Shown here: positions 8,430 to 62,150 of the stretch, piece after piece
Position numbering within the stretch: the first letter of the stretch is position 1
Layout: each line of letters opens with the position of its first letter
IMG/VR virus record: IMGVR_UViG_3300009345_000003
Span: 1-64,000 of that record
Strand: one strand, 5' to 3'
Length of the DNA stretch: 64,000 bases
Source: a virus
The notes under the pieces: model-generated
What the model was told of the DNA's origin: nothing
What the model saw: only the letters and a program-made list of their open reading frames with translations
Database searches by the model: none
Translations under genes and position numbers: made by a program

Positions 8430-8864
8430 ATGTCGATGTACTGCACACAAACGGCTTTTATAACCAAATGCACCCTTACTGAATGCACTTTTTTAGAAGA
8501 CGTAAACAACGCGCTACAAGAAAAAAGACCTGACAAAGCTACCTACGATTCAATTGTTTTGAAAGTAGTAAAAAATATAAAAGAAAAACTCAATGAAGAA
8601 GAAGTATTCACCGGACTTCATGTTGAGGCAGTAAGTTCAGGTGCGTATATTTATTCTGATGAGAATATGTACGTATACGCAGTACAGCTACTATTTGAAG
8701 AATGGGTTAAATTATTCCCTCACTTAATCATAAATTACACCTACGCTTATTACTCAACATATCCTGAAGTAGATGCGTTTGGTGGTGTTGCTGTACGAAT
8801 AAATAAGCAAGGCACATTTACTTTTGAAACAGATGACTTTTTTCAGCAACCTTCTAACAAATAA
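8430..8864 (+). CDS. hypothetical protein
   Basis: AAGGA RBS; YA...S.P..DAFGG.AV.I motif seen in phage proteins. Confidence 0.75.
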   Translation: MSMYCTQTAFITKCTLTECTFLEDVNNALQEKRPDKATYDSIVLKVVKNIKEKLNEEEVFTGLHVEAVSSGAYIYSDENMYVYAVQLLFEEWVKLFPHLIINYTYAYYSTYPEVDAFGGVAVRINKQGTFTFETDDFFQQPSNK

Positions 8865-8876
8865 GGAGTTTTAACA

Positions 8877-9128
8877 ATGACTACTATCAACGCAAGAATT
8901 ATTGGCCGTGGCGCAACCGTTACTGAATTGGCTGAAAAGCTCACACCTACATTACTGCCCAGGATTCAAAAGTTGGATAATGTTGGTAGTGTTATCGAAC
9001 TTCTGAACAGGGTTGAGGACAGACCTGAAATGTATGCTCCCTGGTGGGGTAAGGGCATGACTGAAAACGTCACAAGGCTGAAGATGATTCTTATATCTCA
9101 GTATATACCAAGCATGGAGGTGAAGTAA
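8877..9128 (+). CDS. hypothetical protein
   Basis: AAGGAG RBS. Confidence 0.75.
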   Translation: MTTINARIIGRGATVTELAEKLTPTLLPRIQKLDNVGSVIELLNRVEDRPEMYAPWWGKGMTENVTRLKMILISQYIPSMEVK

Positions 9129-17671: not shown

Positions 17672-17715
17672 TTAACTAAACCATTAGCCCCTGGTTAACG
17701 CCAGGGGCATTAAAC

Positions 17716-17741
17716 ACACAAATTTATACAAGGAGCTAACA
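17716..17741 (+). repeat. 26-bp direct repeat of a leader/RBS (copy 2 at 20295-20320)
   Basis: ACACAAATTTATACAAGGAGCTAACA is identical at both sites, ahead of unrelated genes. Confidence 0.9.
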
Positions 17742-18562
17742 TGAACACGCAAGAAAAACACAATGATGATGGTTCAATAACAGTTACTACCCAGGATTTT
17801 AGGGTAGAAATTGAGCGCGATTACTATGGCATAAACCCTATCGAAGATTATTACGACGCTACCTTATACTGTGTACACCGCAGGTATAATTTGGGACATA
17901 ATAACTATACAAGTCGCGCAGATATGTTTGAAGAAATGCATACGGATTTAAAATTGGACTTACCTGAAAACGCATTTGATGATGACGGTTACATCCAAGA
18001 CGACTACTATGAACTTTTGGATGTGGCTGATTTTGAAGAAATACTCCAAAACAACAATGTGTTTTACGAAAAGCTATACCTGATGAATCATGGTGTCGCA
18101 TTAATATTAACAACTAGCATCGATTGCCGTGGAGGTTCTGCTTTCATCGGTTTCGGAGTCTTAGCCGAAGAAAGCAGAAAAACAATTACTAAAGAACAAG
18201 AAGCCCTTATGTACATCAACAGTTTTGTTTCAATATATGATAAATATTTACAAGGAGAAGTCTATGCGCTTACATTATACAATAATGAAAATGAAATAAA
18301 AGACGCTTGCGGGGGCTTTTATGGTGCAGAACACGCCATTGAAGGTGCAAATGAAATCATAGAGCAGGCCCAACGAGAATTTGAAAAAAACGTAATTAAC
18401 TTAAGCATTGAACAGCTTACTAAAATGACAGCAGCATTCTTAACCACCGAACGTCTAAGTGAAGCTACTAAACGCGTAGTCAACAAAAAGCGGTTCACAA
18501 CAAATTATAAGTACATCCAGGCTGTACTTATTGAATTAGCTGAATCTATAGATCAGGAGTAA
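17741..18562 (+). CDS. conserved hypothetical protein
   Basis: HRRYNLG...YL.GEVY...D.CGGFYG motifs; GGAGCTAACATG start. Confidence 0.85.
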   Translation: MNTQEKHNDDGSITVTTQDFRVEIERDYYGINPIEDYYDATLYCVHRRYNLGHNNYTSRADMFEEMHTDLKLDLPENAFDDDGYIQDDYYELLDVADFEEILQNNNVFYEKLYLMNHGVALILTTSIDCRGGSAFIGFGVLAEESRKTITKEQEALMYINSFVSIYDKYLQGEVYALTLYNNENEIKDACGGFYGAEHAIEGANEIIEQAQREFEKNVINLSIEQLTKMTAAFLTTERLSEATKRVVNKKRFTTNYKYIQAVLIELAESIDQE

Positions 18563-20291: not shown

Positions 20292-20320
20292 CAAACACAA
20301 ATTTATACAAGGAGCTAACA

Positions 20321-41158: not shown

Positions 41159-41475
41159 GTTAGCTCCTTGAATACATTAGTATACTCAATATATGCGTCA
41201 GCCTCTTTCTGTACCATCTCTTTCAACCAACGCCTCCAGTCACCTTTGAAAGCATCTACTGGAACAAGTATAATACCGTCTTCATAATCGACATCATCAC
41301 GGTCTAAACGATTATCCCAGCCGATAGCAATTTCGCCTGATGGACATAACGTAAAGTTCACATACTGAACCTGCTGCACCATGAAGTATTCGGCGTATGC
41401 ATGCAGTATCTCGTGTGCACGGACAGCTAACTTCACTTTACATTGCACGTAAATATTAAACGTAACGTCGAGCAT
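41155..41475 (-). CDS. hypothetical protein, paralog of 36172 N-terminus
   Basis: R..EI..AYA...I..P.D.F...W..WL shared. Confidence 0.75.
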   Translation of the reverse strand: MLDVTFNIYVQCKVKLAVRAHEILHAYAEYFMVQQVQYVNFTLCPSGEIAIGWDNRLDRDDVDYEDGIILVPVDAFKGDWRRWLKEMVQKEADAYIEYTNVFKELT

Positions 41476-41489
41476 GGCGGTAACTCCTT

Positions 41490-41732
41490 TTAGCGCGGGT
41501 CTTCTTCTTCAGCGTAAACTTTTTCCACAACTGCTCTAATAACTATATCGAGTGTACGTTTAGCAATTTCAACCTGCTCATACGCAGCCATCAATTCAGG
41601 GAAACGCTCATTAAGATCATCTATGAAATCAGACAAATTGCACAAACGTTCTATGTCACCTTTTTCGTGGAAGTACAGCAGTGATGATGCATCATCCGCT
41701 GTCATTTTACGTTTTTCATGCTTTTTATTCAT
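41490..41732 (-). CDS. hypothetical protein
   Basis: AAGGAG RBS. Confidence 0.75.
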   Translation of the reverse strand: MNKKHEKRKMTADDASSLLYFHEKGDIERLCNLSDFIDDLNERFPELMAAYEQVEIAKRTLDIVIRAVVEKVYAEEEDPR

Positions 41733-43596: not shown

Positions 43597-43846
43597 GACC
43601 CAGCTCCCTTATTACCCGTTCAGCAGTGCCCCACAACTTATCTCGATTCTGCATATAAGTTGCGTTTTCACCAAACTCTTTTTTGTAAGCATTAAGATAA
43701 ACAAGTGAACGCAGCGTCTCTATGACACGTTCCATATCATCCGCTGCATCTGTAACGAGCGTACTGATTGCACTAGCTACCTCTTCAGGTGCTACTAAAT
43801 AAATAGTTTGAGATAAATTCCTAAGATCATTAATTGATTGTAACAC
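43589..43846 (-). CDS. hypothetical protein
   Basis: AAGGAGCTAAC RBS with GTG start. Confidence 0.7.
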   Translation of the reverse strand: MLQSINDLRNLSQTIYLVAPEEVASAISTLVTDAADDMERVIETLRSLVYLNAYKKEFGENATYMQNRDKLWGTAERVIRELGRE

Positions 43847-44009: not shown

Positions 44010-44086
44010 TGGTATCCGTGGTGGGATTCGAACCCACACTGCGAAGATTTTAGGTCTTCTGCCTCTGCCTGTTGGGCTACACGGAC
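44010..44086 (-). tRNA. tRNA-Leu(TAA), short variable loop, C at position 33
   Basis: GTCCGTG acceptor, GAAGA-CCTAAAA-TCTTC anticodon arm, GTGGG-TTCGAAT-CCCAC T arm, encoded ACCA. Confidence 0.9.
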
Positions 44087-47375: not shown

Positions 47376-47554
47376 TTCAGCCTCCTTCTTTCATTAACAC
47401 TTATCTAAAAATGTGGAACCTCACACCACACTCGCCGGAACGTCTATAACCTCATATCAATCATAACATTCGATCATTCAACGCAGGGCATAATAACATT
47501 TCTTTGATTACGGCTTCCAGCCGATGAAGCGTAACCTTGCTAATTGTCGTCCAC

Positions 47555-47680
47555 CTACTTTATCGAGCCTATAGGGCAAGACCTTTCTATTAATTTTTCT
47601 TCACTTTCTGTGGAGACAGGCATATCCTGCTGTGTAAGCTCTATGCCTACACCACCTATACCCTGGTAATTAACACTCAT
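47555..47680 (-). pseudogene. 41-codon truncated paralog of 44150..44467
   Basis: GAGG RBS; MSVNYQGIGGVGIELTQQDM vs MSIEYVAIGGVGIKFTSYDL, then diverges and stops at TAG. Confidence 0.6.
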
Positions 47681-47706
47681 ATATTTAGTCCTCGCTTTAT
47701 TTTCGG

Positions 47707-47918
47707 TGACTACGCAACCTTTACAGGTATAAACTTTTGGTATCAGTTTACAGCTCTCAAGCAGTACAGAGTTATTTAGAAATCCTTAATAACTGGTAAG
47801 CACCACCAAACCAATTATCAGGTAAACAACCCATCAGTATTAACAAACTGTCAGTATAAGTCATCTCCCGGCCTTTTTAAGGAGTTCACTTACAAAGTCT
47901 TTCGAGCATACGTAGCCA
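47707..47918 (-). ncRNA. candidate ~212-nt structured ncRNA
   Basis: Closing stem UGGCUACGUA/UGCGUAGUCA plus several nested 7-10-bp helices, many with G-U pairs that form only on the minus strand. Confidence 0.6.
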
Positions 47919-47929
47919 TATTAGGTGTA

Positions 47930-48079
47930 TATGTCAGGCTTTCCACCTGACTGCCGGGTTTGCCCACACTTAGCAGTGGTCTTCTTCTTTAAGCGGATTT
48001 TGCCGCACCATTACTGGCTTATGGTTGCCACCGGACTATTGGTCGGTGGGCATGACTAAGAGGATATAGCCCACCGACC
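47930..48079 (-). ncRNA. candidate multi-hairpin ncRNA
   Basis: GGUCGGUGGGC/GCCCACCGACC hairpin, CCGG-closed three-hairpin junction, GUCAGG-UGGAAAG-CCUGAC. Confidence 0.5.
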
Positions 48080-48081
48080 TC

Positions 48082-48112
48082 AAAAAGCGCTCATATGCAT
48101 CATTGTGCGCTT
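48082..48112 (-). terminator. probable terminator of the polymerase operon
   Basis: AAGCGC...GCGCTT stem followed by a T tract on the minus strand. Confidence 0.6.
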
Positions 48113-48138
48113 GGAATAACTCATTTATAAGCGAAGCG

Positions 48139-48543
48139 TCACAAATTGTCAATAGCTTTTTCGTATAATTTGATCACAAAATCTCTGTCTAAGTATGAAG
48201 GATCAAACAAATCCTCCTGAAACAGGGGGCATTGCGTAAAGCAACCAACATGGTCTATTTCATCATCACCTATAATCTGAAATGGGCACACCTGTGAAGG
48301 TCTACGTATTTTAGTGATTAGCTCACCGCGCTCAGCATATGCCACGGGATCATGTAACATCTTATTACTCCACACCGATTTTTCCACAGTGCATAAACCC
48401 CAGGTGCAATATGGTGCTCCATCTTCGGTAAACCCTTTTTCAAAAGGCTGTTTAGCCTTTATCATTCTGTATAACTTAGTCAATAAAGCTACATATTGAG
48501 GTTGACCTAAAAAGATACTGTTTTTCTTAGCCACTATACCCAA
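48139..48543 (-). CDS. Cys-rich hypothetical protein
   Basis: CTWGLC...CPF...GCFTQC; GGAGG RBS. Confidence 0.75.
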   Translation of the reverse strand: MGIVAKKNSIFLGQPQYVALLTKLYRMIKAKQPFEKGFTEDGAPYCTWGLCTVEKSVWSNKMLHDPVAYAERGELITKIRRPSQVCPFQIIGDDEIDHVGCFTQCPLFQEDLFDPSYLDRDFVIKLYEKAIDNL

Positions 48544-51251
48544 ACCTCCGTTGTTTTAAAATCAACGTGCAATGTAATATCACCCAAAAAGTAATCAACT
48601 TTAGGATAATCAGTACGCACTTGCTCAAGCATTCCTTTTTTCATTAATGCTTCTGCTTCCTCTTTTGGCACTGAATTATGCACTTCCCATGTCATAGAGT
48701 CGTGGACTTCTGCCCACGGAAACACTTTAGTACCATACAAACCAGCTGCGGATAAAAGCTTATGTTGAGATACTAATGACAAAAGAAATATATCTGATGC
48801 TGTAGCCTGAACATAAGTGTTTACACCCTGGCGCAAAGCCTGTTCGTCCACATAAGGAAACTTTCTTTCGCGTCCAAAGACAGTACGTGCTTTCTTATGT
48901 TCTATAATATAATCACGTGTATTATTAATCCAGGTTTTCACTGAGGGCATACCTTCAAAAAAACGCTGCGTAAAAGCAGCAGCTGTTTCTATGTCCCAGG
49001 AGCCGTCTTCCAACTTCCAACCTAATGTGCTAGCAATACCTTCAGGTGTCATACCATAAAGTGTTCCAAATGATATAACCTTTGATGCCTGCCTAAACGA
49101 ATCGCCAAACTTTTCACGCTCTTTAGCATTCTTAATAATCATGTCATAAGGTATTTGAAATGCACGCGAAGCAATCATACTATGAAAATCAGCATCTTTA
49201 TCATGACATACAGCAGCAATTTCAGGTGACTTGCCATATGCGCCAGCAACACGAACTTCAATCTGTGAATAATCAGCATATGCCAGATAATAGCCGGGCC
49301 GCGCCTTAAAAATCTGCCGAGTATCCGCACCACGAGGCTGATTTTGAATATTAATCTGATTTGTTTTTCCAAGTCCTACCGAATCAGTTCCACCTGATGA
49401 AGTTCTACCAGAAGCGGTTGAGTTAGTCTTAAATGACGCATATACAAATTCACCCTCTCGTTTTTTAGCCAATCCAGTAACATATGTAGACATCTTTTTT
49501 GACGCTACTCGATAATCTAATAAAACCTTTAACAGTTCGTTGTCAGTCTCAGCATATTTATCTTTCAAAGTACCTTTTGTAGTGTTTTTTAAATTCCAAT
49601 CAGGGTGTGAATGTTTTATACATGCTAAAACAATATCATTTGATCTAGGATTAAAAAGCTTCACCCCCTTGGGCTTGTACGTCTTCATACGCTTACGCCC
49701 TTTCTTTTCACCAGTTTGTTTCAAAAACTCATTATGCTTACGTGCTTCTGCATTAGATACTCGAATGTCTTTTTCACGCTTAGCTTCTGCATAAGCATGC
49801 TCAGTTTTTACTTTATCATTATATGCAGCAACTTCAGGTGTATCTAAAAAACGCCTACATAACTGACGTAATTCGTCCATATATTCGTCAGCTTTCTTAT
49901 TTAATAGCGTATCATTAAGCATGATACCTCTAGCTTCCATGTCACGCAAAATAGGCTTTACACCACAGATTATCTTGTCATACAAAAACGACATATCCTG
50001 TTTATCTACATAGTATCTTAACTTAAAAAAGAGTATAGCTGCTGCCAGGACATCACCGGCGCAGTAATCATGAAGAGTCTTTGTGTCTATTTCCCTATAA
50101 TATTTACCAGCAGTAGCTTTACCTTTTTGTTTAATGTCACCTGCCCATGCTGCTAACTCAGGGGCGTATTCAAATATTAATGATTCAAGGTTAAACTTTT
50201 TCCTGGATTGGTTGACAACATAAGCCTCATCCATGGGATCGTTATTATTCCACACAAACACATCAGAGTGTCTCGCAAGTACACCTGAATCGTAATTACT
50301 ATTAAAAGCTACAGATTTAGTTTTAGCAATGGCTTTAGCTAACGTTGTGGTTACAGGACCAGTGTATATGACTAATTTTTTAGGATCATACGAAAAACTA
50401 TGACATCCAGGTGTATACGTAGTTTCCTCTAAATTTCTAAAAAACCCAAAACCTGTACATCGCGTCTGGCAGTATTCTTTACCGTACTGCCAGTCTAATG
50501 CAGATCGTTCAGATACAAGCGACATCCCTTTATATTTTATTTCTTTTTTTTCAAGTTTTTCCGGGCATATAGTTTCAAAGTCATATTGCAGAAATTCGCC
50601 CTTCCATCCTTGAATAAGCGCAACCATTTCCGTAACACGTTTAACAACGGTATATTCAAGCTTAATTTTTTCATTAAGATTAATATCACAATCACCACCT
50701 AGCGCTTTATCAAAAAGATTGCGTAAATCTGTTTTATATATTTCAAAAGCTTTGCGTTCAGATTCTTTAGTATATTTATAACCATCACGCTCACCATGTT
50801 TACGTAAATAGTATGATGGCGAATGCATACATATATAAATGCGCTCACCTTTGCGCACAATCTTATTACAAATCTCTACAATGTTACGACCTAATAACAT
50901 CTGCGGAGGATAATTACCTGCTAATAATATTATGTTGCCTTTAAACTGCTCTAGTTCATCTTCTAAAGTACTTTTAAAACAAGTCTTAGCTTCAGGCTTA
51001 TTTACACGCTCCTTACCCGGATAACATTTAACTGCATTAGTCACATAAACATAATCTCTATGGATTATATCCTCCAAGCCATTAAGTAAAAATTGAAACT
51101 CACTTTTACCCCAGCACTTACCATTAAATGTGGCTGATTTATTAGGATAGTCACCAATAACAAATAAAGTCTTCCCAGCTGGGGTATCTACTGGCCAGTA
51201 AGCTGTATTAGCAAAAAATTTACACTTATCGCACTTATCACTCTTGTACAT
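48534..51251 (-). CDS. family A DNA polymerase with N-terminal UDG-like domain and 3'-5' exonuclease
   Basis: Exo DFET, FNSNYD, YCAGD; pol SGRTSS, DYSQIEVR, RQASKVISFGTLYG, VHDS; UDG-like TNAVKC.P and H.PSY.LR. Confidence 0.97.
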   Translation of the reverse strand: MYKSDKCDKCKFFANTAYWPVDTPAGKTLFVIGDYPNKSATFNGKCWGKSEFQFLLNGLEDIIHRDYVYVTNAVKCYPGKERVNKPEAKTCFKSTLEDELEQFKGNIILLAGNYPPQMLLGRNIVEICNKIVRKGERIYICMHSPSYYLRKHGERDGYKYTKESERKAFEIYKTDLRNLFDKALGGDCDINLNEKIKLEYTVVKRVTEMVALIQGWKGEFLQYDFETICPEKLEKKEIKYKGMSLVSERSALDWQYGKEYCQTRCTGFGFFRNLEETTYTPGCHSFSYDPKKLVIYTGPVTTTLAKAIAKTKSVAFNSNYDSGVLARHSDVFVWNNNDPMDEAYVVNQSRKKFNLESLIFEYAPELAAWAGDIKQKGKATAGKYYREIDTKTLHDYCAGDVLAAAILFFKLRYYVDKQDMSFLYDKIICGVKPILRDMEARGIMLNDTLLNKKADEYMDELRQLCRRFLDTPEVAAYNDKVKTEHAYAEAKREKDIRVSNAEARKHNEFLKQTGEKKGRKRMKTYKPKGVKLFNPRSNDIVLACIKHSHPDWNLKNTTKGTLKDKYAETDNELLKVLLDYRVASKKMSTYVTGLAKKREGEFVYASFKTNSTASGRTSSGGTDSVGLGKTNQINIQNQPRGADTRQIFKARPGYYLAYADYSQIEVRVAGAYGKSPEIAAVCHDKDADFHSMIASRAFQIPYDMIIKNAKEREKFGDSFRQASKVISFGTLYGMTPEGIASTLGWKLEDGSWDIETAAAFTQRFFEGMPSVKTWINNTRDYIIEHKKARTVFGRERKFPYVDEQALRQGVNTYVQATASDIFLLSLVSQHKLLSAAGLYGTKVFPWAEVHDSMTWEVHNSVPKEEAEALMKKGMLEQVRTDYPKVDYFLGDITLHVDFKTTEVWV

Positions 51252-58275: not shown

Positions 58276-58752
58276 TTAGTAGTTTCTGACACCGTAACCA
58301 CAGATGTGCAAAGCATCTGCTAGACCATCTTTCCTACCCACATTAATACCTGGGTAGTGCTTCTCAGCCAAGGCTATTGAATTATCCTTAATAATCTTTC
58401 GTTTCATACCTTTAGCCATCTTTTTAGCTGGTACAAGCCCTGGTAACTGTTTCTGCCAATGATTCGGCCTGATTTCATATGTTGTAAACTTCAAAGCTAT
58501 ACAAAAAGCCTCAATATTACCGTAGTGTTGGAGATATGTTCCAGCTGATTTTATTCCTTGATTAGGCAGCGTCTGTGCTTTTTCAAGGATAGCAATCTTA
58601 CGACCTGAAAGTTTATAATATTTATAGAAAACATGTAAAATACCTAAAGGAGTAGGCGGCATTAAAGTCACCTCGTATCTACCATCAATACACGCGGCAA
58701 TAGCCCCTTGTTTACCAGGGTCTATGCCGAGATAAATCTTCCGCATAAGCAA
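58276..58752 (-). CDS. RuvC-like Holliday junction resolvase
   Basis: YLGIDPGKQGAIA, ILEK, P..WQK, DGLADAL. Confidence 0.88.
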   Translation of the reverse strand: MLMRKIYLGIDPGKQGAIAACIDGRYEVTLMPPTPLGILHVFYKYYKLSGRKIAILEKAQTLPNQGIKSAGTYLQHYGNIEAFCIALKFTTYEIRPNHWQKQLPGLVPAKKMAKGMKRKIIKDNSIALAEKHYPGINVGRKDGLADALHICGYGVRNY

Positions 58753-58776
58753 TCCTTATTTTTTTGTATATGTCTA

Positions 58777-58805
58777 CTATTATGTTACGTACTAAAAGAT
58801 GTCAA
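58777..58805 (-). promoter_or_regulatory. sigma70-type promoter of the recombination/replication operon
   Basis: TTGACA-N17-TAATAG. Confidence 0.65.
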
Positions 58806-58806
58806 T

Positions 58807-58886
58807 AAAAAAAAGCCGCGATGGTAGTAGATGAGAACCACAGCAGCTTTTTTTATACACCCATACATGGAGCTAACATGCGGGTA
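58807..58886 (-). ncRNA. candidate sRNA C (anti-GGAGCTAACATG hairpin plus terminator)
   Basis: Promoter TTGACT-N17-TATACA (58920-58892); hairpin carrying CAUGUUAGCUCC; terminator ending in U8. Confidence 0.65.
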
Positions 58887-58924
58887 AGATATGTATATAA
58901 TCCATTACCTTGTTAGTCAAGATA

Positions 58925-59014
58925 ATAGTTGATTCCAGGCACATCGAAAGAGGAAATCTAAAAAGGAGTTAAAAATAAACCCCTCTCGATGCGCCACAAC
59001 TTAACAGTATCAAC
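58925..59014 (-). ncRNA. candidate sRNA B (long hairpin with UUUUUAACUCCUUUU loop)
   Basis: Promoter TTGACA-N17-TATACA (59047-59019); stem GGCGCAUCGAGAG/CUUUCGAUGUGCC with G-U pairs. Confidence 0.65.
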
Positions 59015-59053
59015 TATGTGTATAGGTACGCATGACTTATTTGTCAAGATTTT

Positions 59054-59158
59054 AAAAGAATAAATCCTGGATACCGAAGCAGCCAGGATTTAAACTGAAA
59101 AATAAACACACATTTTGCAAAAAAGGATTTAGCTAATAAACACTAAATGTGCCTACAA
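59054..59158 (-). ncRNA. candidate sRNA A
   Basis: Promoter TTGCTT-N17-TACTAT with TG (59192-59164); 5' hairpin, single-stranded linker, UUCG terminator hairpin 59061-59092. Confidence 0.6.
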
Positions 59159-59205
59159 AACATATAGTACACAGTAGTAATTAAAAAAGCAAGCAAAAAA
59201 ATCCA

Positions 59206-59234
59206 TTGACAGCTAATTAAATTAAGTATACTTC
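59206..59234 (+). promoter_or_regulatory. promoter for the 957-aa gene
   Basis: TTGACA followed by TATACT/TACTTC at 15/17 nt. Confidence 0.55.
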
Positions 59235-59276
59235 TAGAGGCGAAAAATCATTAATATAATGCACATTTATTAAAAA

Positions 59277-62150
59277 ATGTTTGTTAAAAGGAACCACGCT
59301 ATGAACAACTTAATGCCGTACGAACTAAATGCAATAATTAATAATAACTGTTTCAGAACTTTTAGAGCTGCACTGTACGCTTCATACAACCCGGCCAATT
59401 CCATAGCGCGTGACAAGAACACAACTCACAGCCAGCATATAGTTAAAAAAATGTATAGTTTAAGCAAGATGGCCAAAGTCCATTTGGCTATACTTGACAT
59501 GCCTATGCCTCTTCAAGCCTGTTTATCCTTGATAGGGATCATTAATTATATAAATCCAAAGTCCGAAACCAAAGAACGTGGAAACTGCTATGCTAAACGT
59601 CAAACTCTCATTGATGACTACCTACATTGCACAGCAGCCATCAGCCGCAGAGCTACTAACTACCTAAAGGATAATGGCTACGTAAAGTCCTACAAAGTAT
59701 ACATGTCTACAGACAGGTACACACCCTTATGGACAAATAATTACCTTCACAGTGATCACTTACGTCACAAGCAGCCTATCCCTAAAGTAGGTGCTAGAGT
59801 CGTTAATCTAGACACTCATTTGAAATACATGACCCTGCCCAAACTATTTTTTAAATCCAAAGTCATATCTAATAATGCCAAGTATTGGTTCATGCAATTA
59901 CTTAAAAAGCAGATGCATGAGTCTGTCAGGTTCATTAACCCTAAAGAAGGGAAAGGATATGTTACAAAAAAAGGCGAGTATAAAGAAGCGCGTCTTGAAA
60001 ACGTAATTAAAGAACTTGAACGTTTAGACTTAGTTGAATTTAAAGTATTCACGTCTCATAAAATGAAGTTCAAAGTAAGAACGTTCGCAGGTGTTTATCT
60101 TAGGCTCAAATTAGCAGAAGCAGGTAGGCTAAATAGCGACACCATTAAGAAGCTTAGATCAATGGAACCTACCTGGGATATGTTGGCAGAATCAGAATTA
60201 CTAGCTGGTTTCACAGCCGGTGGGTTAAACATTGCGTACGCGCCAGTCATGGATAAATTAAATGAGCAAGACCCTAAAAGCTCTTACCTCAAGCCGCATT
60301 TTGAATACTTGGAAGTTCCATATAATGTACCTGATGTCATCGACACTAGGGTAAATGAAGTCACACAAAGAATTTGTATGGGTTACCTGATCTCTGAGCA
60401 GTTGAAGCAGCAAGCAGGCAACCCGGAAGGTTACTTTGTAATTAATCAGACAGATATGCGTAAAGCCCTTGGTTATGGCCAGAACACAGTTACTGAATTC
60501 ATTAATGATTATGTACGCCACGACTTATTGGAAAAACTACATACTTCCACTAAATATGGGACAGTTTTGCGCTTCAAATACAATGAAAAAATACAGCGTA
60601 CTAGTAAGGGCACCATGCACCGCTTAAATGATGGTAAGTTCAAAGAACCTGAACATGGCGCGCCATATCAATATTCAGACGTTTACAGAACCGTTAGGTT
60701 GCCAAAAATTCTACTCATCAACGGCGTACTCAATGTGAAGGCGATTATTAGTGGCTGGATGGCAGCATACATGCAAGAATTCACTACCAGGAGTAAGAAG
60801 CTGACGATCACTGAGGTGTCTAGACGCATAGGTATCAAAAAAGAAAACATAATCAAAGCAATCAATGAATTACATAAGTTTGGTTTCGTCAGAAAAAAAA
60901 TAGTTAGTAAGGATCAATATAAGTTTCTCCACATGAATAATTACCAAATGCACCGATTGATCTGCCAAAAGGTTAAATCGTATAAACTATTGTCGCCGTT
61001 TACATTTTTTTTAGGAAACGTTGATGGTGTGACAAAAAAAGACTTAAATTTCAAACTAGACATAAACGGTATGAACCCGGAAGCGGCAAATACAGTACAA
61101 CAATTTTTTATTTCTTACGAAATAAATAAACTATATAAACACTCCCCCGTAAAGGAGGAGGGGTCTTCGCCCAGAGAGGTTAGTACTCTCTGGAAATCCT
61201 CAGTCCAGACTTGCTTTGCTTCGCAGCAATCTCCTACCAACTTCGTTGGATCAGATAGGATAGACATCCAATCTTTAGAAGATAGCCAGCAAATCTTTAA
61301 CGTAGTTCAGTCTATTCAGACTAGTCACAACCTTTGTAAATCACAGGATACATCTATTCCTTTAGTAGATATGTCAAAGACAGAGATGGAGCAGTCCACA
61401 GCTGACAAAAAGCAAAAAAATGAAAAACAACTCACGAGTTCTGACGATACCCTTAGTAGGACATCAGAAAAGAGTAAAAAGAAAAGCAGGCGTAAAAATA
61501 GGGCTAAGAAACATGGTTCTAGCAGCATAATACAACTAGACAAACTGGTTTGTTTAATGTCTGATCCTAAATATTCTACTGCCGACTTTGGAAGTATGGG
61601 TAAAAAGAAAATTTGTGGTACTTTGAGTGAAGCTTATTCAGTTTTTGGTGCTGCTGTTTCTCACCTGCTTGTGAGTGGCACTAAGAATATTAAGAAGAGA
61701 GAAAAGGCTAAAGCTTTGGCTAAGAAACTTACAAATAAGCAGCTTCTTACTATGTTGCGTAATTACATGGGTAAGTGCCGTAACGGCTATAAAGCCCTTA
61801 TGCGCTATATTTTGTGTATGGCCTCCAACTATTGTGGTCGTGATGATTTCACGTTTGATTTTATACAAGCTACTACTATGTGCCTCAAAGGTATTTTACA
61901 AACTGGCGGTGCTACTGATTTTCAGGTGTTACGTGATAAGCTAACCGAAGTTGGTGGTGATGTTGTAGCTGGTGATGTGAAGTTTACAAAAACTGATTTG
62001 TTTAAAACAATTAAAGAATTAGATAAGTTGGAATACTATGGTGATGACAATGTATCTGACGCTCTCCTAGATCAATTGGATTTATATAAAAATTCTCTTG
62101 TAATAGTTCGTAAAGAGCATTTGTACTATAACATGCAGGGTGTTTGCTAA
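59277..62150 (+). CDS. large multi-winged-helix protein, probable replication initiator
   Basis: Several HTH-like segments (e.g. ITEVSRRIGIKKENIIKAINELHKFGFV; QTDMRKALGYGQNTV), duplicated LPK motif, Ser/Lys-rich linker. Confidence 0.6.
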   Translation: MFVKRNHAMNNLMPYELNAIINNNCFRTFRAALYASYNPANSIARDKNTTHSQHIVKKMYSLSKMAKVHLAILDMPMPLQACLSLIGIINYINPKSETKERGNCYAKRQTLIDDYLHCTAAISRRATNYLKDNGYVKSYKVYMSTDRYTPLWTNNYLHSDHLRHKQPIPKVGARVVNLDTHLKYMTLPKLFFKSKVISNNAKYWFMQLLKKQMHESVRFINPKEGKGYVTKKGEYKEARLENVIKELERLDLVEFKVFTSHKMKFKVRTFAGVYLRLKLAEAGRLNSDTIKKLRSMEPTWDMLAESELLAGFTAGGLNIAYAPVMDKLNEQDPKSSYLKPHFEYLEVPYNVPDVIDTRVNEVTQRICMGYLISEQLKQQAGNPEGYFVINQTDMRKALGYGQNTVTEFINDYVRHDLLEKLHTSTKYGTVLRFKYNEKIQRTSKGTMHRLNDGKFKEPEHGAPYQYSDVYRTVRLPKILLINGVLNVKAIISGWMAAYMQEFTTRSKKLTITEVSRRIGIKKENIIKAINELHKFGFVRKKIVSKDQYKFLHMNNYQMHRLICQKVKSYKLLSPFTFFLGNVDGVTKKDLNFKLDINGMNPEAANTVQQFFISYEINKLYKHSPVKEEGSSPREVSTLWKSSVQTCFASQQSPTNFVGSDRIDIQSLEDSQQIFNVVQSIQTSHNLCKSQDTSIPLVDMSKTEMEQSTADKKQKNEKQLTSSDDTLSRTSEKSKKKSRRKNRAKKHGSSSIIQLDKLVCLMSDPKYSTADFGSMGKKKICGTLSEAYSVFGAAVSHLLVSGTKNIKKREKAKALAKKLTNKQLLTMLRNYMGKCRNGYKALMRYILCMASNYCGRDDFTFDFIQATTMCLKGILQTGGATDFQVLRDKLTEVGGDVVAGDVKFTKTDLFKTIKELDKLEYYGDDNVSDALLDQLDLYKNSLVIVRKEHLYYNMQGVC

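Follow-up and report, generated by a model that had tools for sequence, protein, structure and literature searches.

Analysis of a 64-kb window, the first part of a 135,961-bp virus record (IMGVR_UViG_3300009345_000003) that CheckV rates as complete, revealed a tandem array of predicted small RNA (sRNA) units, two of which carry loops that mirror ribosome-binding sites (RBSs) of the phage's own genes. The array occupies a 524-nt divergent spacer (58753-59276) between a minus-strand gene block headed by a resolvase and a plus-strand open reading frame (ORF) of 957 aa, and the minus strand of this spacer holds four promoter-like sites (P1 to P4), three ORF-free hairpin units (RNAs A, B and C) and two intrinsic terminators (T1 and T3), set edge to edge. 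The sequences themselves, folds that favor one strand, promoter and terminator signals, and a non-random complementarity of RNAs C and B to two classes of start regions are all present in this genome. The best single explanation, which for this one genome we hold at slightly less than an even chance, is that the array encodes trans-acting antisense RNAs that would occlude a private set of phage start sites; that the RNAs are produced, pair with start regions and repress them, and when in infection they would do so, is predicted from sequence.

Start regions complementary to RNAs C and B

Start regions were compiled from 185 crudely called genes whose starts were refined by whether a Shine-Dalgarno (SD) sequence was present, after which an SD-like word was found at 136 of the 185. 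Their most frequent 10-mer is GGAGCTAACA, present at 9/185 starts compared to 3/185 for the runner-up. The longer tag GGAGCTAAC(ATG) occurs 11 times in 2 x 135,961 nt, where we estimate about 0.6 copies from base composition; nine of these copies precede a start codon by 0-5 nt, in the coding orientation (9/185 starts), one is inside a gene on the other strand and one is in the RNA C hairpin, which carries the complement of the tag, CAUGUUAGCUCCAUGUA. The class consensus complementary to RNA C is ATACATGGAGCTAACATG, with the center of the tag falling in the loop of the hairpin. The best match of the spacer to the genome, apart from itself, is 17/17 to 132767-132783, the start region of gene 132781 (E 0.005), followed by 17/18 matches to 17726-17743 (gene 17741) and 129920-129937 (gene 129935). 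The complementarity of 17 of 18 nt at 17726-17743 claimed for RNA C in the original prediction, made from the letters of the window alone, is thus real, and the perfect match lies outside the window. The loop of RNA B complements the related GGAGTTAA class, and the previously noted matches of 10-11 nt were all recovered, at 41475, 39994, 45101 and 13061. The candidate targets are:

17726-17743, plus strand: example target of RNA C in the GGAGCTAAC class, by complementarity
20311 and 23336, plus strand: other members of the GGAGCTAAC class in the window
41167, 43288, 43858 and 53029, minus strand: other members of the GGAGCTAAC class in the window
70013 and 132772: members of the GGAGCTAAC class beyond the window
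129935: member of the GGAGCTAAC class beyond the window, with one change
41481-41491, minus strand: example target of RNA B, AAAAGGAGTTA, 11 nt
39994, 45101, 13061 and 57091: other RNA B targets in the window
113077 and 130760: RNA B targets beyond the window

The leaders of two unrelated genes are identical over about 26 nt (17716-17741 and 20295-20320; AACACAAATTTATACAAGGAGCTAAC) and end in the GGAGCTAAC tag. A tRNA-Leu gene (anticodon UAA; 44010-44086, minus strand) stands alone in a 303-nt gap, and the first minus-strand gene downstream of it, starting at 43846, carries the GGAGCTAAC tag.

Comparison with shuffled sequences indicated that these matches exceed chance for two of the three RNAs. 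Contiguous complements of at least 9, 10, 11 and 12 nt to RNA C were found at 18, 14, 7 and 5 starts, respectively, where 1.7, 0.46, 0.11 and 0.03 are expected from 2000 dinucleotide shuffles of the RNA and 2.5, 0.53, 0.11 and 0.04 from 1000 shuffles of the start flanks in which the SD was kept; no shuffle of either kind reached the observed counts, and the maximum among the start-flank shuffles was 4 at the threshold of at least 10 nt. For RNA B the corresponding counts were 13, 6, 3 and 0, with the 6 starts at 10 nt or longer compared to 0.65 expected from RNA shuffles (P 0.003) and 1.46 from SD-kept start shuffles (P 0.001). At 9 nt or longer the P values were 0.0015 and 0.001, respectively, and over the thresholds together they spanned 0.0015-0.004 with RNA shuffles and 0.001-0.011 with start shuffles. 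Measured against starts that retain their SD, complementarity beyond generic GGAG pairing is therefore clear for RNA C (14 vs 0.53) and moderate for RNA B (6 vs 1.46). RNA A, with 10, 2, 0 and 0 starts, was at the level of chance in these comparisons (P 0.08-0.5). The 10-nt match of RNA A to 17711-17720 that had been proposed as a further contact does exist, and it too falls at chance; the "linker" said to make it, UGUGUGUUUA, is the 3' arm of the RNA A hairpin and is paired.

A similar picture came from ranking ninety-nt windows, 8357 in all, chosen so that none is antisense to a called start. RNA C is covered by each of the top three, and RNA B comes fourth among the distinct loci; of the loci ranked above RNA B, one at 12.5 kb lies antisense to a genuine start that start refinement had displaced.

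The complementary words sit in apical loops that differ by a single base, UUAGCUCC (UUA-G-CUCC) in RNA C and UUAACUCC (UUA-A-CUCC) in RNA B. The bases that follow GGAG in the starts are CTAA (10), TTTT (4), TTAA (4, plus 13061), ATAA (1) and GTAA (0), so that the two loop variants stand against GGAGCTAA at 10 starts and GGAGTTAA at 4-5 starts, with GGAGATAA at one start and GGAGGTAA at none. The apical word of RNA A, UAAAUCCUUUUU, is identical to the RNA B loop word at 11 of 12 positions and complementary at 10 of 11 to the RBS of the neighboring resolvase gene. These likenesses are suggestive, though not proof, of an array enlarged by duplication, with divergence of the loops. A possible extension, which we regard as doubtful, is that such a paralogous sRNA gene array, with host-type promoters of its own and loops diverged by single bases, would act as an "address book" that times the translation of gene classes independently of transcription units, with UUAGCUCC addressing GGAGCUAA, UUAACUCC addressing GGAGUUAA and perhaps AAUCCUU addressing AAGGAUU, including that of the resolvase.

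An alternative is that the RNAs are real but act broadly on SD sequences, of host mRNAs or of all mRNAs, as a general brake on translation. In its favor, a pyrimidine anti-SD core is found in all three apical regions (AUCCUUUUUU, ACUCCUUUUU and GCUCC), and SD-like words are widespread at the phage starts (136 of 185). We consider this explanation quite improbable, because the matches of RNAs C and B reach well past GGAG into phage-specific flanks and because such a brake would strike the phage's own genes as well.

Proposed action of the RNAs

For class-specific antisense control, we propose that host RNA polymerase would read the minus strand of the spacer to give small non-coding RNAs. RNA C would be a transcript of about 80 nt from P3 to T3; RNA B, starting at P2 and having no terminator of its own, would probably form a B-C transcript of about 210 nt; and RNA A, of about 103 nt from P1 to T1, is possibly real. 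The 5' loop of RNA C, UUAGCUC, would nucleate pairing with GGAGCUAAC(AUG), carried by about ten mRNAs of the phage, and the duplex would extend over the SD and the start codon to keep 30S subunits off. RNA B would do likewise for the GGAGUUAA class, in about five to six mRNAs, and the outcome would be that RNAs program the translation of the phage's own genes class by class. The UUAG within the RNA C loop fits YUNR, a motif of antisense recognition loops. The targets at 129935 and 132781 can each form a hairpin of 4-5 bp with GAGC(U/A)AA in the loop, which would permit a loop-loop kissing contact with RNA C.

Temporal control in large phages is usually attributed to promoters, sigma factors and a few RNA-binding proteins. 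If the proposed action is correct, this phage would have a programmable post-transcriptional layer over genes scattered across all its transcription units. The retention of the same spacer between SD and start codon in unrelated genes would then be accounted for as well. The loop/tag pairs, being short and orthogonal, could then serve as synthetic parts for translational control.

Organization of the array

The features of the spacer, in the order in which the minus strand would be transcribed, are:

59206-59232, plus strand: divergent promoter-like site for the 957-aa gene, TTGACA-15-TATACT, back to back with P1
59164-59192, minus strand: promoter-like site P1, TTGCTT (59192-59187), 17 nt, TACTAT (59169-59164), 8/12 match to consensus
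59054-59156, minus strand: RNA A, about 103 nt, a 5' hairpin and terminator T1, by folding
59092-59061, minus strand: terminator T1 of RNA A, cUUCGg tetraloop (UUCG on the minus strand only), tail UUCUUUU at 59060-54
59019-59047, minus strand: promoter-like site P2, TTGACA (59047-59042), 17 nt, TATACA (59024-59019)
58927-59001, minus strand: RNA B hairpin, 16-bp stem (58995-58980 with 58953-58938) and 26-nt A/U-rich loop (58979-58954)
58892-58920, minus strand: promoter-like site P3, TTGACT (58920-58915), 17 nt, TATACA (58897-58892), abutting hairpin B
58858-58886, minus strand: RNA C 5' hairpin, 7-nt loop UUAGCUC (58876-58870) flanked by CAUG/CAUG, starting at about the predicted first base, 58885
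58807-58854, minus strand: terminator T3 of RNA C, an A-run, a 17-bp interrupted stem, an 11-nt loop and 8 U; inverted repeat I3
58776-58805, minus strand: promoter-like site P4, TTGACA, 17/18 nt, TAATAG/AATAGT, 10/12 match to consensus

The 5' hairpin of RNA A has 10 bp (59156-59147 with 59111-59102), including four G-U pairs, and encloses an apical region of 35 nt, in which UAAAUCCUUUUUU is found (59131-59118). The RNA B loop carries UUUUUAACUCCUUUUUA (58975-58959); this unit has neither a terminator nor a U-tail, and its transcript should therefore continue into unit C. In RNA C an A-rich linker joins the hairpin to T3, which looks bidirectional, yet stronger on the minus strand. The units are separated, terminator to promoter, by only 7 nt (T1 tail to P2), 0 nt (hairpin B to P3) and 2 nt (T3 tail to P4). 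No minus-strand ORF of at least 30 aa is present in 58753-59269, in agreement with the earlier description of the units as ORF-free.

All three units fold better as minus-strand RNA, with an advantage of 6-10 kcal/mol, in keeping with the strand preference of the G-U pairs noted earlier. Minimum free energies for the minus and plus strands were -28.7 and -18.1 kcal/mol for RNA A, -29.2 and -19.6 for RNA B, and -29.3 and -23.6 for RNA C. The minus strand is G+T-rich here, which favors G-U pairs; z-scores against same-strand shuffles were still larger for the minus strand (-4.5 to -4.75) than for the plus strand (-3.05 to -3.6).

The four minus-strand promoter sequences with 17-nt spacers listed in the original prediction are all present as written, and their standing as promoters varies. 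The pattern TTGAC[AT]-N17-TA has 10 matches in the genome, seven of them intergenic where 0.6 are expected, and three of the matches are on the minus strand of the spacer, so that P2 to P4 are probable promoters. P1, the weakest of the four sites and missing from the list of a generic promoter scan, is a weak candidate. P2 and P3 share the direct repeat D4, ATCTTGAC..AA.AAG..TATACA.AT. TATACA was also considered as a special promoter word and rejected, being frequent across the genome. P4 would be the promoter of the operon of resolvase, RecA-like and replication genes.

The position of the array raises a cis-acting alternative, in which the spacer would be the control region of the recombination and replication operon, with tandem early promoters, attenuating terminators and processing hairpins, read-through set by antitermination or RNase III, and the likeness of the loops to start regions incidental. 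All units face the operon and are packed terminator to promoter, and their place at the head of a 27-kb operon resembles that of early promoter clusters, such as A1-A3 of T7, and of leader RNAs, such as put of HK022. RNA B in particular is without a terminator, and its 16-bp stem is of a type cut by RNase III. This alternative leaves unexplained why the most frequent start-region 12-mer of the genome is found inverted in one loop and its sister word in RNA B; moreover, T1 and T3, with their U-tails, have the look of complete terminators, at which most transcripts would end short. On balance we judge cis control unlikely.

A second arrangement in which the targets would lie close by is that RNAs A and B are countertranscripts, cis-antisense to a long plus-strand leader of the 957-aa gene, whose product may bind DNA or act as an initiator, in the manner of plasmid copy-number control. 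The plus strand has a site at 58873-58901, CTAACA-17-TATAAT (10/12 match), which overlaps the spacer's copy of the tag and is listed by the generic scan; if active, it would give a transcript antisense to RNAs B and A that meets no plus-strand terminator along the way. Winged-helix matches in the neighboring 957-aa protein, all weak, fit this arrangement too. The better plus-strand site, with its TTGACA at 59206, lies to the right of the RNA A start, so that a normal leader need not overlap the array, and neither RNA C nor its match to the tag is explained; we therefore rate countertranscripts as highly improbable.

Observations that weigh against antisense control

Several results count against the trans-acting explanation and keep our confidence in it tentative. 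On the plus strand, the spacer copy of the tag (58869-58880) has an ATG in place and reads as an RBS and start codon. The copy could thus be a relic or mini-gene, that is, the real RBS and ATG of a 12-codon frame or the remnant of a deleted gene, with the hairpins as old terminators; it matches the full class consensus, and a weak plus-strand promoter-like site (ATGAGA-17-TATACA) can be drawn. Four points indicate that the copy is no normal start site: it heads a frame of only 12 codons, a bidirectional terminator stands just upstream of it on the plus strand, the RNA B word has no start codon in reach, and the copy is buried in a hairpin of -8.6 kcal/mol. The 185 real starts have a mean of -2.5 kcal/mol (standard deviation 2.2) with only 3/185 as stable, setting the copy apart from the other 182, and the start-region folds of the ten class members lie between 0 and -4.0 kcal/mol. 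An identity of 17/17 would also not be expected to persist in a remnant. Taken together, these points make a relic very improbable.

The promoter evidence is also mixed. The generic scan showed no enrichment of sites around the array (6 vs 9.6 expected in 3 kb and 55 vs 64.6 in 20 kb) and lists P4 alone on the minus strand of the spacer, while the -10 hexamer shared by P2 and P3, TATACA, lacks the usual final T. At the other end of the proposed interaction, sigma70-like sites of at least 9/12 were absent within 100 nt upstream of nine of the ten tagged starts, the tenth having a 10/12 promoter-like site at -97, and the genes of the class are mostly without known function, so that no regulatory logic can be named. 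GGAG itself occurs twice in the spacer, compared to 0.78 expected, and is not enriched, which places the complementarity signal in the flanks rather than in generic anti-SD content.

Cofolding of RNA C with eight class starts gave net energies of -15.7 to -22.0 kcal/mol. Compared with shuffled RNAs, A and B were no better and C was marginal (-22.0 vs -21.6 for the best shuffle), in a control of 13 shuffles per RNA that is confounded, since shuffles lose structure. RNAduplex returned long gapped duplexes of little use.

Conservation of the array was not found in the relatives available. The spacer DNA had no match among 50,697 phage records, resolvase and polymerase scans of IMG/VR returned no close relative, and a word-based protein search with the resolvase recovered only the phage's own proteins. 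Searches of the phage records by tblastn with the RecA-like protein and the resolvase gave distant matches only (no more than 40% over up to 26% of the query for 3 records, and less than 32% for 26 records). In an exhaustive HMMER search the best match of the RecA-like protein was 42% identical, and a profile of 9 sequences led to 10 IMG/VR loci, three of which (L002, L005 and L006) were examined. The best, and the one relative at family level, is L002, in a GC-rich virus record of 146 kb with a RecA-like protein 41% and a resolvase 31% identical, which keeps the layout of divergent gene, spacer, resolvase and RecA-like gene. Its spacer (8725-9001, 277 nt, GC-rich) contains no array; it has one or two promoters, including TTGACA-17-TAAATA ahead of the resolvase, and a pair of hairpins with G-U pairs that favor the strand of the divergent 439-aa gene. 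L005 and L006 are cut or have no divergent spacer.

Gene neighborhood

Genes of the window are on the plus strand up to about 31.4 kb, whereupon a minus-strand block extends between 31782 and its head at 58752. At about 59 kb, where the genes switch strand, the GC skew turns as well. The 27-kb minus-strand operon downstream of the array, which carries recombination and replication genes, is headed by a RuvC-type Holliday-junction resolvase (58276-58746/52; phrog_1770, E 3.8e-21) and a RecA-like ATPase (Pfam RecA, E 1.4e-16), with a primase-helicase and a family-A DNA polymerase farther down. This polymerase (48534-51251, minus strand) has a uracil-DNA-glycosylase-superfamily domain (residues 24-156, E 1e-12) fused N-terminal to its exonuclease and polymerase domains. 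Iterons or an origin were looked for and rejected, the repeats found being short and in two copies only. The phage looks like a large lytic-type phage rather than a P1-like one.

To the right of the spacer, the 957-aa ORF (59277-62150, plus strand) has winged-helix matches that are all sub-threshold, and a word-based search of 5.8 billion proteins found no relative, the matches being confined to the phage itself. Where the ORF starts is ambiguous: 59277 lacks an SD, 59301 has AAAGGAA, and the protein collection calls the start at 59469 (893 aa).

A second ORF-free region, a 763-nt gap at 47376-48138 (minus strand), directly follows TTGACA-17-TATAAA (48152-48124), which is the genome's best sigma70-like site. 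The gap contains many G+C-rich hairpins, has no Rfam match at E values up to 1 and is possibly a large structured RNA of no known class.

Comparison with known systems

Across the whole window, the tRNA alone passes the Rfam gathering threshold. The spacer has three weak Rfam matches, all below gathering (E 0.49-9.5), and no match to C4. In bits, compared to the gathering threshold, these are:

mir-2767: 21.2 vs 69
CRISPR-DR5: 20.5 vs 40
CRISPR-DR60: 17 vs 45

A CRISPR-repeat mimic, that is, an RNA anti-CRISPR, was rejected, the two CRISPR-DR matches having E values of 4.2 and 9.5, far under gathering. Two other kinds of element were considered and set aside. PeSL elements of T4-type phages are promoter-stem-loop cassettes repeated at many gene boundaries; a blastn-short comparison of the spacer with the whole genome found no repeated cassette, and its strong matches were the start-region tags only. 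Protein sponges such as CsrB and RsmZ expose GGA motifs in loops of the transcribed strand; here the minus-strand loops show UCC, and GGA is on the worse-folding plus strand, without an upstream promoter pattern.

A protein may instead read the tag, for example one like RegB of T4, which cleaves within GGAG (PMC1702504). Such a reader would leave the inverted copy in the spacer unaccounted for. Pfam profiles for RegB (PF10715) and RegA (PF01818) had no match in the genome, a result that is uninformative because control genomes were silent too.

Among antisense RNAs of phages, sar RNA of P22 is described as a short cis-antisense RNA that blocks expression by pairing (PMC12197685). Whereas sar overlaps a single target gene on the opposite strand, RNAs C and B are 5-74 kb from their candidate targets, and the same difference applies to OOP RNA of lambda, another cis-antisense phage RNA. 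In the virulent Pseudomonas phage PAK_P3, sRNA1 and sRNA2 are abundant intergenic RNAs of about 100 nt that were proposed to act in trans, their proposed matches being an 11-nt stretch of the T-loops of host tRNAs and one site within each of two genes of the phage (PMC4933390). Unlike those of RNAs C and B, these matches are not at ribosome-binding sites. Bacterial anti-SD sRNAs, such as the hairpins of RNAIII of S. aureus and RsaE, have C/U-rich loops with a UCC(C) core that pair with the SD regions of several mRNAs. These sRNAs are host-encoded and use a generic SD core, whereas the pairing predicted here runs 9-17 nt into a tag that only part of the phage genes carry.

Of the systems described, c4 RNA of P1 and P7 (Rfam C4, RF01695) comes closest; its complementary segments, thought to be in loops, pair around an RBS and block translation (PMC12197685). 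Like c4, the RNAs predicted here are small phage RNAs whose loops would pair at ribosome-binding sites. They differ from c4, which acts on one operon, ant, in having about 15 dispersed candidate targets with private tags, and in comprising up to three units with predicted promoters and terminators of their own and no Rfam C4 match. c4 is also processed from the same transcript as ant. The proposed set of three anti-RBS RNAs thus narrows to RNAs C and B, which mirror two start classes and hold their above-chance complementarity in exposed apical loops; RNA A shows no such specificity. The statement that no described phage system has this layout applies to the array, since our literature search found no paper on arrays of separately promoted phage sRNAs addressed to private ribosome-site tags, and does not extend to the principle, which is known from c4 and from bacterial anti-SD sRNAs. 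What sets the present array apart is the combination of separately promoted units, as predicted, with many dispersed, tagged candidate targets.

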